Source of the DNA: Candidatus Scatovivens sp.
GTDB taxonomy: Bacteria; Bacillota; Clostridia; TANB77; CAG-508
Length of the DNA stretch: 64,000 bases
Direction: 5' to 3'
Assembly (NCBI GenBank): GCA_045646345.1
Contig: JAZRKN010000003.1
Coordinates: 2,898-66,897 of the forward strand
Positions 7,137-10,407 of this stretch are shown piece after piece. The first letter of the stretch is position 1. Each line of letters starts with the position of its first letter. The notes under the pieces are model-generated. The model was not told the origin of the DNA, did not search any database, and saw only the letters and a list, made by a program, of their open reading frames with translations. The position numbers and the translations under genes are program-made.

Positions 7137-8450
7137 TTAAAATTCAACCTCTCTAGTATCATTTGTTTTGTCCTTTTGGGGTTGTTTTTGAACTGTTGTT
7201 TTATAATTAGAATCTACATTTAACGATTCAACTTTTAAACTTTGTGGTTCTACGCTTCCCTTTTCTACAATCCTTTCTTTTGGAGATATTATAAATGTAC
7301 GCGAGTAAGTATTAAAATGTTTGTAATCATAACCTATTTTTTCTAAGTTAGTTGCACTTCCGAAAAAAATTAATTCTCTTTGTTCCTCCGCTTGTTCATT
7401 TATCGGCATTATATAAGGTGTTCCTTTTCTTACAAGAATATGATTAATATACTGTAAGTTATGTGAGGAACCAGCTTTATTTGAGAAACTATTTGCTACA
7501 TTTTCGTTTAAAGAAGTTGAAATCATATCGCTTTCAGCTAAAGAAATATTATTTTTTTCAAGAGGTCTATTGGTTGCAAAACCTCTGTAAACAAAAATAT
7601 CTTCAGGTACAACGATTTTGTCTTTATGTGTATCAAGAATAGCTAAGACACTTTTTAATGATTCGACTAATTTTTCTTCTGTTGAATAATCAATAAGTTT
7701 TCCAAATTTTTTTATTATTTGAGCTTCAATAGTATCGCTGTTCGAAACTTTATTAAAATAGCGAAATCTTTCATGAAAACTATGATAAAAGTCTTCATTT
7801 TTATTACATTCCTCTAATAGTTTCTCGCTACTTTTGCTCTGATAATTAGGGACTGCAGCTATTCTATTCAAGCTAACAAATAATGAACTACTATATATTT
7901 CAATAGCTAAATCTAATTTTTGCTTTTCTTCTTCAGGTAAACTGTTTTTGTATTGTTCGAAATTAGCTTTTAATTTAGTATACATTTCATTAGTGGAGTT
8001 AGTTGAAACAGACATATTTTTTTGAGAGTCTTTTTTGTAATAAATTTCATCTATATGTTCTTCGTAATTATCACCATATTTATTTCTTAATTCTTCTACA
8101 GATTTTTCTAAAACATTAAAATTCTTTAGAATTTCATGAGGGGCAGTTTGAAAATAAGGTTCGATTTTTTTTGTTGTAATATTTGCTCGAAATTCTACAT
8201 TTTTTACAGGATAGCCTAATGCTTTTAATCTTGAAGTCATAGAAATTATTTTTTGTAGCTGTTCGTTAATAGTTTTTATTTTTTTAATAAATGGTTTGCT
8301 TATCGGATAGCCGTCAGTAGAAGTTTCTACTTCACAAGAAAAAGTTCCATCTTCATTTATAATAATATCATTTTCTTCTAAATTATCATCAAAATATAAT
8401 GTATTTAAATCTAATAAAGCTTTTCTTTTTTTATTATCTATTTCCTTCAT
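7137..8450 (-). CDS. Putative mono-ADP-ribosyltransferase (R-S-E class, C3/iota-like catalytic domain) with an N-terminal domain of unknown function
   Basis: 437 aa. SD aggagaag. No signal peptide. The C-terminal about 150 aa contains …IFVYRGFATN…(22 aa)…MISTSLN…(about 45 aa, with aromatic-Pro PYIMPIN)…EEQRELIFFG. This is an Arg / S-T-S / Q-x-E triad with ART-like spacing. Confidence 0.45.
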   Translation of the reverse strand: MKEIDNKKRKALLDLNTLYFDDNLEENDIIINEDGTFSCEVETSTDGYPISKPFIKKIKTINEQLQKIISMTSRLKALGYPVKNVEFRANITTKKIEPYFQTAPHEILKNFNVLEKSVEELRNKYGDNYEEHIDEIYYKKDSQKNMSVSTNSTNEMYTKLKANFEQYKNSLPEEEKQKLDLAIEIYSSSLFVSLNRIAAVPNYQSKSSEKLLEECNKNEDFYHSFHERFRYFNKVSNSDTIEAQIIKKFGKLIDYSTEEKLVESLKSVLAILDTHKDKIVVPEDIFVYRGFATNRPLEKNNISLAESDMISTSLNENVANSFSNKAGSSHNLQYINHILVRKGTPYIMPINEQAEEQRELIFFGSATNLEKIGYDYKHFNTYSRTFIISPKERIVEKGSVEPQSLKVESLNVDSNYKTTVQKQPQKDKTNDTREVEF

Positions 8451-8501
8451 TGTCTTCTCCTATTTATAAATCATGCTGTAATTAATTATTATTTTTTAAT
8501 G

Positions 8502-9140
8502 CTACTTTATTTTTACTCCTATCAAGTATAATAAATCTATTGCTTGAAATTGATTTATTAGGGCGCCTTTTATATCTTCAAGAGATATAGCTATTCCTTC
8601 TATGTTGCAGTCTGAAAGATCTATTCCTTTAAGACTTGTTTTAAAAAATTGAACTTGTGTTAAATTAGATTCTTTAAATATAATATTTTTTAATTTATTT
8701 TCTTGAAAAGAACTATTTTTTAAAATACTATTATTAAACAATATATTTTCTAAACTTGCCAAAGAAAAGTTGCTATAACATAAATTAGTTTCTAAATAAC
8801 TAACGTTATACATTCGGCTTTCAATGAAATTACATCCAGTTAATTTACAATTATTAAATTTACATCTGATAAAGCAACTGTTTTCAAATGAAGTGTTCGA
8901 AAAATTACAATTATTGAATTCAATATCAGTAAATATATTATTTTCTAATTTACTATTAGTAATCTCAACGTTGTTTAATATAGCTTTGTCTATTTTTATA
9001 TCTATTATCTCTATATTTTCGTTTATATAATTTTCAATACAAACGCCAGTTAATTCTTCTATATTATTTATTTCATTAATTAAATTTTCTATTTTTCTTA
9101 AAGTACTATTTGACACTTTTTTCGGACTTAATATGTTCAA
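8502..9140 (-). CDS. Pentapeptide-repeat protein (Qnr/McbG/AlbG-like)
   Basis: 212 aa. TTG start preceded by SD aggaga. About 150 aa of tandem A(D/N)LXX-type pentapeptides (…NFSNTSFENSCFIRCKFNNCKLTGCNFIES…). Confidence 0.7.
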   Translation of the reverse strand: MNILSPKKVSNSTLRKIENLINEINNIEELTGVCIENYINENIEIIDIKIDKAILNNVEITNSKLENNIFTDIEFNNCNFSNTSFENSCFIRCKFNNCKLTGCNFIESRMYNVSYLETNLCYSNFSLASLENILFNNSILKNSSFQENKLKNIIFKESNLTQVQFFKTSLKGIDLSDCNIEGIAISLEDIKGALINQFQAIDLLYLIGVKIK

Positions 9141-9163
9141 TTCATTTCTCCTATAAAGTTAAC

Positions 9164-9676
9164 CTATTTTTCTTTATATATAATTTTTAATATAAATTCT
9201 TTTAGTTTGGTAAAAAAAGATTCTTTATATTTTATTAAAGATGTATTTGCAATTTCTTGTGTATCTTGAATATTTTCTATATTTTCACTCGTATTATTCG
9301 TTTTTTTGAAAAGATCATCAGGATTATATTTTTTTCTTTTCTCTTCTTCTAAAGACAGAAAATCTTCTTTTTCTTTTTTCAAAATTCTATTTCGTTCTTC
9401 ATCAGTAGCCCAATAATCTCTATATAATACAGCCAAAATTGTTTCTGTTTCGCTAAGCATAGTTAGTTCTTGGAAATCATGAAAATTTGTAATTGTATAA
9501 TGATATTCTTTGTCTGAATTTAACTCCATATTTTCTATAATTTCAGTAGGAATCCTGTTGTAATCTTCTAACGGAATATGTTTTAGTATTTCTAATGCTT
9601 CAACATATGCTTTAGGCATTAATAATTTATTTATCATTCTTTTGAAAACCCCATTTCTAATATTCGCTTTTTCCAT
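9164..9676 (-). CDS. Hypothetical protein
   Basis: 170 aa, acidic/Lys-rich, no recognisable motif. Its start overlaps the upstream gene by 43 nt, suggesting translational coupling. Confidence 0.45.
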   Translation of the reverse strand: MEKANIRNGVFKRMINKLLMPKAYVEALEILKHIPLEDYNRIPTEIIENMELNSDKEYHYTITNFHDFQELTMLSETETILAVLYRDYWATDEERNRILKKEKEDFLSLEEEKRKKYNPDDLFKKTNNTSENIENIQDTQEIANTSLIKYKESFFTKLKEFILKIIYKEK

Positions 9677-10407
9677 TTCGAAAAAATTCCAGTAACAGTT
9701 TCTTTATCAGCAAAATTTGCTTTTTCACATCTTTTTCCAATATCTTCTGTTGATATTTGTTGTTTTTTAGAAGTATTTTCTTGTAAGACTTCTGGATGCA
9801 TTTCACAAAATTTTTCTAAATCAATAAAATCAAGTTGATACTTATCTGATTTGAATTTTTCAATTTTGTCTTTATATCTATAAGTTGCAAGACCTTTACT
9901 TAATTCTGGATTTTTTGCAAAAAACATACTATAAATATCTAACATAGAATATGATTCAATCTTATTATCTTGAATATTTTTAATAACGCAAACTTTTAGT
10001 TGATTTGCAGGAATTGTTTGAGAAGTATATGAATCTTCTGGTTTGTCTTCGTTTTTTTCTGATAAACAATTTCCATCGAAACAAAGATAAATATTGTCAC
10101 TTATGCAATCCTCAAATGAAGATGCGCTTCTGATGCTTTCAATACTTTCTTGATGTTTTTTTAAATCTTGTTCGGATAGTGATTCTCTAAAATGATCTTC
10201 ATTTATATTTCCTTCTAAAACAGAGTTATAAAATCTACGAAATACATCAAATGTATTTGTTGCTCCTTGTTTTCCAACTGAATATGAAACCTTACCAACA
10301 CGAGAATCAGCTGTTAAAGAAGAATTATCGCCATAAATAGGTTTTAACCCATCTTTTAAGATGGATTGTAAAAATTTTATTTTGGTTGTATGATAACAAT
10401 CTTTCAT
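9634..10407 (-). CDS. Hypothetical protein, with a possible DUF4433/DarT-like N-terminus
   Basis: 257 aa. SD gaaagga. N-terminus CYHTTKIKFLQSILKDGLKP resembles the conserved [YF]H-x-T-x-I-x-N-L-x-S-I-L-x-x-G start of DarT-family DNA ADP-ribosyltransferases. This is a from-memory motif match and is not verified. Confidence 0.35.
   Translation of the reverse strand: MKDCYHTTKIKFLQSILKDGLKPIYGDNSSLTADSRVGKVSYSVGKQGATNTFDVFRRFYNSVLEGNINEDHFRESLSEQDLKKHQESIESIRSASSFEDCISDNIYLCFDGNCLSEKNEDKPEDSYTSQTIPANQLKVCVIKNIQDNKIESYSMLDIYSMFFAKNPELSKGLATYRYKDKIEKFKSDKYQLDFIDLEKFCEMHPEVLQENTSKKQQISTEDIGKRCEKANFADKETVTGIFSKWKKRILEMGFSKE

Follow-up and report, generated by a model that had tools for sequence, protein, structure and literature searches.

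A four-gene operon in the 64,000-nt window (the whole stretch of DNA analysed here; approximately 25% GC, from an uncultured gut Clostridia bacterium) encodes members of two uncatalogued ADP-ribosyltransferase (ART) families. What is new at this locus is these two families, not a four-gene system. Both ART-fold families were missed by Pfam, NCBIfam and PADLOC. The operon is probably a set of three modules (g1-g2, g3 and g4) that are independent elsewhere and co-transcribed in this one species. The first family (g4) is cytoplasmic and C3-like, with a Q-x-E motif and a novel N-terminal domain, and is encoded by a single gene without an immunity partner; the second (g1) is Tpt1/DarT-like and is coupled to a new small partner protein (g2). 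The sources of both families are uncultured gut and rumen Clostridia. ARTs underlie many bacterial toxins, toxin-antitoxin and anti-phage systems, and new ART clades have repeatedly given new substrates (DNA, RNA, FtsZ and EF-Tu).

The four minus-strand ORFs listed by the first-pass annotation were all found (Table 1), and we consider them real genes because each of them has conserved homologues. They are co-directional, and an intrinsic-terminator-like site flanks the set on each side, whereas none occurs between the genes. The upstream hairpin, which had been described as a terminator at about 10.5 kb and was found there, closes the preceding gene (147 aa) and forms the 5′ boundary of the unit; the downstream hairpin, partly repeated at 5795-5818, forms the 3′ boundary. 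A promoter-like site is predicted between the 5′ terminator and the g1 start. The repeat-flanked cassette proposed next to the operon is also present, on its downstream side, as a methyltransferase gene bracketed by direct repeats (5631-5756 and 6854-6979, 79% identity; 5795-5818 and 7021-7044). The gene order ABC-HAD-147aa-g1-g2-g3 was found again within the species, on contigs obtained from three independent samples. As part of the three-module reading, g1-g4 probably form one transcription unit in this species. It counts against the three-module reading that tightly packed, co-transcribed genes usually share function and that, within the species, the arrangement is stable.

Table 1. Features of the g1-g4 transcription unit and its boundaries (positions in the window)
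Feature	Positions	Strand	Description
g1	9634-10407	minus	257-aa ORF, start with clear Shine-Dalgarno
g2	ORF 9164-9676 (170 aa); likely gene 9164-9637 (157 aa)	minus	
g3	8502-9140	minus	212 aa, TTG start
g4	7137-8450	minus	437 aa
Promoter-like site	10441-10469	minus	TTGAAC, 17 nt, TG-TATAGT; consensus scan, 9/12 matches plus TG extension
Intrinsic-terminator-like hairpin and T-run (5′)	10509-10530	minus	9-bp stem, 6 GC pairs
Terminator-like hairpin and T-run (3′)	7031-7055	minus	9-bp stem then TTTTTTTATT; 82 nt past g4 stop

The spacings given for the annotated ORFs (a 43-nt overlap, a 23-nt gap and a 51-nt gap) are arithmetically correct, but the 43-nt overlap between g1 and g2 had to be replaced. 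A Shine-Dalgarno site had been assigned to each gene; AGGA/AGGAGA sites are present 5-7 nt 5′ of the starts of g1, g3 and g4, but the ATG at 9676 lacks one, and a g2 start at that position was rejected. The g2 gene most likely starts at M14, with a 4-nt overlap with g1, because residue 12-14 of the 170-aa ORF is where its homologues and the tblastn alignments start, and the ATG at 9637 shares ATGA with the g1 stop. In a hydropathy check, the maximum 19-residue Kyte-Doolittle mean was at most 1.27 in g1-g4 and no N-terminal hydrophobic or transmembrane-grade segment was detected, in agreement with the earlier statement that none of the four proteins has a signal peptide. PADLOC models gave no match for any of five proteins at E ≤ 1, another point against the three-module reading.

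The R-S-E triad previously recognised in g4 is well conserved. The protein consists of an alpha/beta domain (residues 1-100 approximately), a long helical region (104-276 approximately) and a C3-like R-S-E ART core, with R289, S311-T312-S313 and Q357-x-E359 as core residues. R289, in 'VYRG' (aligned with 'LFRG' of C3), is invariant in 49 out of 49 sequences of the wider alignment; in the 'ISTSL' strand, S311 is invariant and T312 at least 90% conserved in the same 49 sequences. S311, T312 and S313, as well as Q357 and E359 (Q357-R-E359 followed by LIFF), are invariant in all nine full-length relatives. The fold was confirmed by structural comparison: the g4 model superposes best on C3 exoenzymes, Certhrax and binary-toxin A components (400-445 aa, similar length), with a pLDDT below 50 at residues 292-311, 323-335 and 364-437, that is, poor across the ART core. 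This poor model also weighs against the three-module reading. The R-S-E likeness extends to C3bot, C3stau, C3larvin, Certhrax, the catalytic domains of iota Ia, CPILE-a, C2-I and VIP2, and Lmo0066.

With g4 as query, direct scans of Pfam, NCBIfam, PHROGs and PADLOC yielded no usable match. The protein was under every Pfam threshold; for PF03496 (ADPrib_exo_Tox) there was no hit at E ≤ 1 and the gathering score was not reached. The PF03496 link is transitive only: among the 49 aligned sequences, four match the model at E ≤ 0.01, and scores of 48-49 bits (cut-off 23.4) were obtained for two metagenomic relatives. In the PDB sequence search, ARTs were reached only with the 49-sequence profile; the single sequence and a 4-sequence profile gave no match. 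Compared to C3-like/ADPrib_exo_Tox ARTs, g4 adds an alpha/beta domain of approximately 100 aa and a helical region of approximately 170 aa before the core, lacks a signal peptide, has a short spacing between R and STS (22 residues), falls below the PF03496 threshold and belongs to an extremely rare family. Lmo0066 is paired with an ARH-type immunity gene, whereas none is adjacent to g4.

Only four homologues of g4 were found among 5.8 billion sequences, and the three loci recovered (L001-L003) harbour none of g1-g3. The homologues are solitary, in unrelated contexts and with no adjacent immunity candidate: one stands between trkH and trkA (L003), and another has an HTH repressor and a Zot-like gene as neighbours (L001), which suggests an inovirus-like element. 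Outside contexts were limited to these three, two of them short contigs, so the context sample is small, a further point against the three-module reading. A scan of viral contigs gave no g4 relatives, tblastn against phage and plasmid collections gave no match, and an exact look-up of g4 (window sequence and P0001) returned no indexed contig. Given these null searches, no origin from a phage or plasmid is claimed; the single hint of one is the Zot-like gene in L001. In summary of its distribution, g4 may be a rare, movable C3-like enzyme.

We infer activities, targets and regulatory relationships alike from gene structure, folds, motifs and conservation patterns. As a mono-ADP-ribosyltransferase, g4 would hold NAD+ with R289 and STS and catalyse transfer with Q357-x-E359; Q-x-E in place of E-x-E would direct it to an acceptor other than arginine. 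Its target would not be an essential protein of the producer, because the homologues are single and have no adjacent immunity candidate, and g4 itself carries no signal peptide. It may instead be a protein of a host, a competitor or a phage; alternatively, the long N-terminal region may hold the enzyme inactive. Activity on host proteins would make g4 a candidate gut-commensal effector.

In a different account of the locus, g4 would be a C3-like exoenzyme that acts on a host and travels as cargo of a mobile element, with g1-g3 as unrelated neighbours. Release would occur by lysis or a non-classical route, as for C2-I, which lacks a signal peptide, and cell binding or translocation would fall to the 280 residues at the N-terminus. 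The best structural matches of g4 and their similar length fit this account, as does the Q-x-E motif, which C3 exoenzymes carry; the homologues lack an immunity gene, one of them has the HTH repressor and Zot-like neighbours, and those related contigs whose source is named were obtained from animal gut samples. Nevertheless, we consider it unlikely: the first 30 residues of g4 are hydrophilic (mean Kyte-Doolittle -0.84), a secretion signal as in classical C3 exoenzymes was absent by the hydropathy check, and most wider-family matches begin in the first 25 residues or so of the hit, leaving little room for a signal. Moreover, no B-component-like or translocation gene was seen among the neighbours scanned, the phage and plasmid collections gave no match, and the N-terminal domain resembles nothing known in sequence and structure searches. 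The similar length and the matches to Ia, C2-I and CPILE-a also raised the reading of g4 as a binary-toxin A component, which was rejected because the N-terminal residues (approximately 100) form a small alpha/beta domain and not a second ART-like adaptor, and because the scanned neighbours included no B-component-like gene.

The first gene, g1, encodes a cytoplasmic protein with an ART fold, in which an H6-x-T8 motif (Tpt1/DarT-like NAD lobe) stands at the N-terminus, a helical subdomain of approximately 55 residues (45-101) is inserted and a cationic, putatively amphipathic tail forms the C-terminal end. The label 'DarT-like' was appropriate for the ART fold, which was confirmed, and for the N-terminal H-x-T NAD motif, but not beyond them. 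Compared to DarT, the ssDNA thymidine ART of DarTG, g1 has the helical insertion, no canonical catalytic Glu was identified, and no DUF4433 match was obtained in Pfam or NCBIfam for g1 and 24 homologues at E ≤ 1; nor is its partner g2 a macrodomain such as DarG. The canonical strand position is Q136-L-K138 (strand 136-144) and reads Q-L-K/R in the family, with no obvious catalytic Glu. The invariant E120 and D125 sit in the loop before this strand. Lys or Arg at the canonical Glu position of g1, a putative enzyme, counts against the three-module reading. The nearest sequence signal is the Tpt1 NAD lobe: 3 out of 25 family members match PF01885 (Tpt1/KptA), with a best E of 0.02, below threshold. 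By contrast with Tpt1/KptA, g1 has no N-terminal RNA-binding lobe, because its motif begins at residue 4 and that of Tpt1 lies at residues 96-128. The protein itself, like g4, was under every Pfam threshold, which also counts against the three-module reading; direct scans of Pfam, NCBIfam, PHROGs and PADLOC yielded no usable match, and tblastn against the phage collection gave no match.

The partner protein g2 has a conserved N-terminal domain of approximately 105 aa and a KKYNPDDLFKK motif, and it ends in a putative amphipathic helix. None of its 70 homologues has a Pfam hit, and no macrodomain or other significant Pfam hit was found in g2 and 25 homologues. A role as macrodomain, ARH or NADAR-type reversal enzyme was unsupported by the Pfam searches. 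Direct scans of Pfam, NCBIfam, PHROGs and PADLOC with g2 gave nothing usable, and tblastn against phage and plasmid collections gave no match.

The g1-g2 pair is translationally coupled in other Clostridia that lack g3 and g4. Overlapping pairs were found in L004-L008 (260 + 153 aa, 270 + 155 aa), and in L009/L012 the order is reversed, with g2 next to a g1 paralogue. Around rho-divIC-yabQ-yabP, the L004 locus shares synteny with the window, and it has g1-g2 without g3 and g4. Adjacency conserved across lineages (L004-L008 and L009/L012) was found for g1-g2 only; g3 and g4 have none with any other component of the operon. From sequence comparison, g1-g2 may be a toxin-antitoxin-like pair, because of the 4-nt overlap, the occurrence of both gene orders and the association of g2 with other upstream proteins. 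A strict toxin-antitoxin reading is weakened by g1 homologues (306 aa) that occur without g2 and by g2 alone in L028-L030. The other upstream partners of g2 homologues (287 and 261 aa) have little or no similarity to g1; the C-terminal residues (approximately 120) of the 287-aa partner are common to g1, so part of the apparent partner swapping may be divergence within a single family.

Panacea/DUF4065 antitoxins are an example of a single antitoxin family whose members partner many families of toxins. Similarly, g2 follows at least three different proteins and also precedes a g1 paralogue; the overlap is usually 4 nt, and some copies lie within mobile elements (a Mob_Pre/integrase element). 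Unlike them, g2 has no DUF4065 match and its toxin-antitoxin role is only putative. In the proposed mechanism, g1 would be a cytoplasmic enzyme of the ART superfamily with an NAD pocket of the H-x-T (Tpt1/DarT/PARP) type, and g2, small and helical, would restrain or direct this NAD-consuming protein in a toxin-antitoxin or conflict module. If the pair is truly a toxin-antitoxin or defence pair, g2 would represent a new antitoxin type for ART toxins.

Alternatively, g1 might be an inactive or non-transferase ART fold (one that binds NAD/ADP-ribose, or a Tpt1-like enzyme directed at phosphates on the ends of nucleic acids) with a housekeeping or sporulation-linked function together with g2, outside conflict. 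The Q-L-K/R sequence and the Tpt1 signal are consistent with this, as are the solitary g1 homologues and the position of g1-g2 near rho-divIC-yabQ-yabP, kept in two lineages (66% identical). However, the g1 family is sparse (24 clusters among 5.8 billion proteins) and patchy, with varying contexts and paralogues in one locus, and fits accessory genes better than housekeeping; g2 is found within the mobile element, and g1 is entirely devoid of the Tpt1 RNA lobe. We consider this function doubtful.

The third gene, g3, encodes a Qnr-like pentapeptide-repeat protein (PF13599, 1.2e-23; PF00805, 8e-15), as first described, but the label 'Qnr-type' overstates the likeness. The NCBIfam Qnr model gave 52.9 bits against a cut-off of 240, Qnr subfamily models gave at most 37 bits against cut-offs of 425-500, and g3 was under every cut-off of the Qnr, MfpA and HetL families. 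The best solved matches in the PDB search were 6fls (8e-22) and 2w7z (1e-17), the latter being EfsQnr of Enterococcus faecalis; they aligned over residues 40-210, including the C-terminal segment, and are similar in length (about 210-240 aa). Pentapeptide-repeat proteins of the g3 type match 89 plasmid records at 35-39% identity, and none of the 31 related loci (L001-L031) gave a pentapeptide-repeat gene in tblastn. In Firmicutes, intrinsic chromosomal genes of this kind are common, and g3 would simply be co-transcribed here. Compared to known Firmicutes pentapeptide-repeat proteins, its location between ART genes is without precedent in the literature searched.

A more ambitious possibility, which we regard as quite improbable, is that g1-g2 founds an undescribed NAD-dependent conflict module of gut Clostridia, formed by a Tpt1/DarT-like ART effector without the canonical Glu and a new non-macrodomain partner that also pairs with other upstream effectors. 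Both proteins would end in membrane-targeting-like amphipathic helices. In the operon with g4 as a cytoplasmic C3-like Q-x-E ART, g3 could be an immunity factor or decoy, a DNA mimic countering DNA- or topoisomerase-directed ADP-ribosylation. The hydrophobic moments of the C-terminal tails (µH 0.43-0.63, 95th percentile 0.56) make their amphipathic character suggestive only.

The first-pass annotation took the four genes for one toxin/immunity or phage-defence module, in which the ART(s) would be effectors, g3 a DNA-mimic immunity factor or regulator (shielding, for instance, gyrase or DNA against ADP-ribosylation) and g2 a second immunity factor or adaptor. The tight operon with terminators at both ends and stable within the species, the two confirmed ART folds, the resemblance of g3 to 6fls and 2w7z, and the Q-x-E of g4, a motif carried by DNA- and Asn-targeting ARTs, favour it. 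However, tight packing of thematically similar genes is insufficient to call a system, and the comparative data split the operon into modules. The single-system claim also failed on recurrence of the neighbourhood in other genomes, a check proposed in the first-pass annotation itself. We consider a single system very improbable because related genomes carry g1-g2, g3 and g4 separately: the syntenic relative has g1-g2 alone, g4 homologues are solitary, as between trkH and trkA, g3-type proteins are common stand-alone, PADLOC gave no match, and the four genes were not seen together outside this species, with a pentapeptide-repeat gene in 0 of 31 loci. As the earlier annotation supposed, the combination is not a described system in the literature searched, and a four-gene system would be new; the only pairing of a pentapeptide-repeat gene with an ART gene found there was in a Lactococcus garvieae plasmid, where both genes are far apart and unlinked.

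All four consecutive minus-strand genes of the first-pass annotation (g1 to g4 in transcription order; coordinates in the table) appear in the six-frame ORF list just as named there. Terminator-like hairpins, including the one previously placed near 10.5 kb, flank these genes, the consensus scan found no such site between them, and a promoter-like site lies upstream; g1-g4 are thus plausibly one transcription unit. A Shine-Dalgarno sequence had been assigned to every gene; it is present ahead of g1, g3 and g4 (AGGA/AGGAGA, 5-7 nt ahead), but not ahead of the g2 ATG at 9676. The g2 homologues begin at the position that M14 occupies in the 170-aa ORF, tblastn alignments start at residues 12-13 of that ORF, and the ATG at 9637 overlaps the g1 TGA stop as ATGA. 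Given the homologue starts, the ATGA and the missing Shine-Dalgarno sequence, the start at 9676 is probably wrong and g2 probably coupled translationally to g1 by a 4-nt overlap; the 43-nt overlap described before holds for the ORFs, but likely not for the genes. Hydropathy analysis revealed no N-terminal hydrophobic or transmembrane-grade segment in any of the four proteins, in agreement with the reported absence of signal peptides. GC content is approximately 25% throughout the window, and contigs from three further samples of this species keep the order ABC transporter-HAD-147 aa-g1-g2-g3.

Coordinates of the genes and sites discussed in the text
Feature	Position	Strand	Remarks
g1	9634-10407	minus	257 aa, six-frame ORF list
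g2, longest ORF	9164-9676	minus	170 aa, six-frame ORF list
g2, likely true gene	9164-9637	minus	157 aa, start at M14
g3	8502-9140	minus	212 aa, TTG start, six-frame ORF list
g4	7137-8450	minus	437 aa, six-frame ORF list
Promoter-like site, TG-extended	10469-10441	minus	consensus scan
Terminator-like hairpin	10530-10509	minus	behind upstream 147-aa gene, consensus scan
Terminator-like hairpin	7055-7031	minus	82 nt past g4, consensus scan
SAM-methyltransferase gene	5849-6667		flanked by direct repeats
luxS	3883-4434		in AT-rich stretch
Doubtful 152-aa ORF	5126-5584		in AT-rich stretch
ECF-type sigma factor gene	262-741	plus	
360-aa gene	710-1792	plus	overlaps ECF-type sigma factor gene; C-terminus matches PF25302 (2.5e-12)

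The four genes had been read as one toxin/immunity or phage-defence module, with recurrence of the neighbourhood in other genomes proposed as a check. In the related loci examined the neighbourhood did not recur and, judged by sequence comparison, the four-gene "system" dissolves. The best explanation is that the operon joins three modules, namely g1-g2, g3 and g4. What is shown concerns folds, motifs, gene structure and how the genes are distributed; the activities proposed below are inferences.

In five loci from other genomes (L004-L008), a g1 homologue is followed by an overlapping g2 homologue of 153-155 aa and by nothing else. L004 is syntenic with the window (15345-19107 in the window, 8245-12783 in L004; g1 66% identical), AA-kinase, YabP, YabQ, DivIC and Rho adjoining g1-g2 in both; the orientation of g1-g2 is inverted in L004, and g3 and g4 are absent from it despite the synteny. 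A single locus from a sheep-gut Clostridia MAG (L009/L012; 6001-6747, 9583-10869) carries two g1-family paralogues: a g2 homologue precedes the distant paralogue (hhalign probability 99.4%), reversing the gene order, while the other g1 homologue, the first of the two, lies 3 kb away without g2. The 306-aa g1 homologues are solitary. Conversely, g2 homologues lacking a standard g1 neighbour (L025 3141-4456, L031 3215-4324, L028 4001-4438) were found after a 287-aa protein whose similarity to g1 is confined to the C-terminal ~120 residues (30% identity, E 2e-10), after a 261-aa protein with no detectable g1 similarity (L031), and alone in a Mob_Pre/integrase element. On this comparative evidence g1-g2 is a genuine conserved pair, and the pairing appears to be undescribed.

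The 24 clusters homologous to g1 are all unnamed or hypothetical and all come from Clostridia metagenomes; their invariant residues include H6, T8, Y42, S43, Y107, E120 and D125. Residues 4-36 of the family profile (cYHtTk..LrsiLknGLqP) align to the Tpt1 motif LYHGTPRRNLPSILKEGLKP (E 0.5), and PF01885 was weakly matched by 3 of 25 family members. The DarT-like N-terminus attributed to g1 therefore stands as regards fold and motif, but g1 is not a DarT, since it has neither a DUF4433 match nor a macrodomain partner. Tpt1 was likewise ruled out because the N-terminal RNA lobe is missing. Where R-S-E and H-Y-E ADP-ribosyltransferases (ARTs) have their catalytic Glu, the corresponding strand of g1 reads Q136-L-K/R138; E120 or D125 might take the place of this Glu. 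Among the 70 homologues of g2 none carries a Pfam domain; they share a conserved N-terminal domain of ~105 residues and a KKYNPDDLFKK motif, and the longer forms have a C-terminal amphipathic helix.

From the 4-nt coupling, variable order, partner swapping, within-locus paralogy and occasional mobile-element location we tentatively infer a toxin-antitoxin-like or conflict role for g1-g2, at somewhat less than even odds. A non-toxic, Tpt1-like or NAD-binding g1 would fit the chromosomal synteny and the missing canonical glutamate; we consider it unlikely.

Short cationic amphipathic helices were also observed at the C-termini of g1 (9634-9700), g2 (9164-9215) and all their alternative partners, the 261-aa protein of L031 included, and of the homologue proteins P0017 and P0158. 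Examples are TGIFSKWKKRILEM and SFFTKLKEFILKII. Their muH values of 0.43-0.63 (95th percentile 0.56) are suggestive only, and they resemble MinD/FtsA-type membrane-targeting sequences.

Direct scans of g4 gave no match in Pfam, NCBIfam, PHROGs, PADLOC or PDB sequences, and its family is extremely rare (four clusters among 5.8 billion sequences). The R-S-E triad recognised at first reading was confirmed: R289 in VPEDIFVYRG, S311-T312-S313 in ISTSL and Q357-x-E359 in QRELIFF are invariant in the four-cluster alignment, as is the whole R/STS/Q-x-E triad in nine relatives of full or nearly full length. When 1.84 billion representatives were searched exhaustively by HMM, 51 relatives emerged; all 49 sequences of an alignment made from these keep R289 and S311, and T312 shows at least 90% conservation. 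PF03496 (ADPrib_exo_Tox) was matched by 4 of these 49 sequences (best E 2.8e-6), and two metagenomic relatives passed its gathering score (48-49 bits). Against PDB, the 49-sequence profile matched 2kxi, which we take to be NarE of Neisseria meningitidis, at 4e-5, followed by Certhrax, several C3 exoenzymes and Lmo0066 (E 0.01-0.04). With the nine-sequence profile, C3 exoenzymes were the top seven PDB matches (E about 0.15), the helix and beta1 Arg "VPEDILVYRG" pairing with C3 "TPENIMLFRG". Together these results assign the C-terminal part of g4 with high confidence to the C3-like mono-ART domains; the part ahead of it, an alpha/beta domain of ~100 residues and a helical stretch of ~170, resembles nothing known. 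R289 and STS would bind NAD+, and Q-x-E would catalyse transfer to an acceptor other than arginine. Both g1 and g4 can be recognised as belonging to the well-known ART superfamily. Current family libraries miss the families of both; g4 is a rare C3-like ART moving as a single gene.

The g4 homologue of L001 (250-1515; 58% identical) has as neighbours a divergent HTH repressor and several small genes in a block (2052-7047), one of them for a Zot-like protein (phrog_197, 8e-10). These surroundings suggest an inovirus-like element, and the layout recalls CTXphi, where an ART toxin gene lies next to zot. In L002 the homologue comes after two tiny ORFs. In L003 (218-3317) a 436-aa homologue (45% identical) is flanked by trkH and trkA, all three genes being on one strand, with gaps of 24 and 51 nt and no candidate partner beside it; this looks like a single-gene insertion into the potassium-uptake operon. 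In L017 (2993-5170) the stop of a NUDIX hydrolase gene lies 3 nt before the start of a 524-aa distant relative of the g4 ART domain; NUDIX could plausibly serve that branch as an ADP-ribose-processing partner.

As no immunity gene travels with g4, the enzyme probably does not act on an essential protein of the cell that makes it. That absence, like the structural neighbours, would also fit a host-directed exoenzyme, but g4 has neither a secretion signal nor a delivery component, and Sec signals appear to be missing across the whole clade, since matches in most shorter relatives begin within the first ~25 residues; we regard host-directed action as improbable.

The pentapeptide repeats of g3 are bona fide, judging from its match to PF13599 (1.2e-23); its best solved relatives are 6fls (8e-22) and 2w7z (1e-17), presumably a clostridial pentapeptide-repeat protein and EfsQnr, respectively. 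The "Qnr-type" label was not upheld (52.9 bits against the Qnr cut-off of 240). Proteins with similar repeats are common as stand-alone genes on Firmicutes plasmids, and g3 belongs to a type of pentapeptide-repeat gene that is common in Firmicutes. No such gene was detected in any of the 31 loci (L001-L031; tblastn with g3), PADLOC models matched none of the proteins, and the literature searched contained no pentapeptide-repeat/ART system. Relatives of g1, g2 and g4 were absent from 50,697 phage records, and those of g2 and g4 from 72,556 plasmid records. An integrated four-gene system, with the pentapeptide-repeat protein as DNA-mimic immunity, finds no comparative support and is very unlikely. 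Because each of the alternatives considered deals with its own part of the locus, there is no need for the probabilities to total one.

The repeat-flanked cassette described downstream of g4 was recovered: direct repeats (5631-5818 and 6854-7044; 126 nt at 79% identity and 24 nt at 88%) flank the methyltransferase gene. Because the second copy takes in part of the g4 terminator region, this ~1.2-kb cassette looks inserted or duplicated behind g4. A 74-nt repeat family (3262-3335, 4934-5007, 5097-5170; 65-80% identity) and an inverted repeat of 54 nt (arms 4931-4984 and 5241-5294) sit in a very AT-rich stretch (GC 0.21) around luxS and the doubtful 152-aa ORF, possibly as a small non-coding repeat element. 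The window holds another NAD-toxin-related domain, PF25302 (NAD glycohydrolase translocation F5/8 type C domain), in the 360-aa protein, a possible anti-sigma-like or surface protein.
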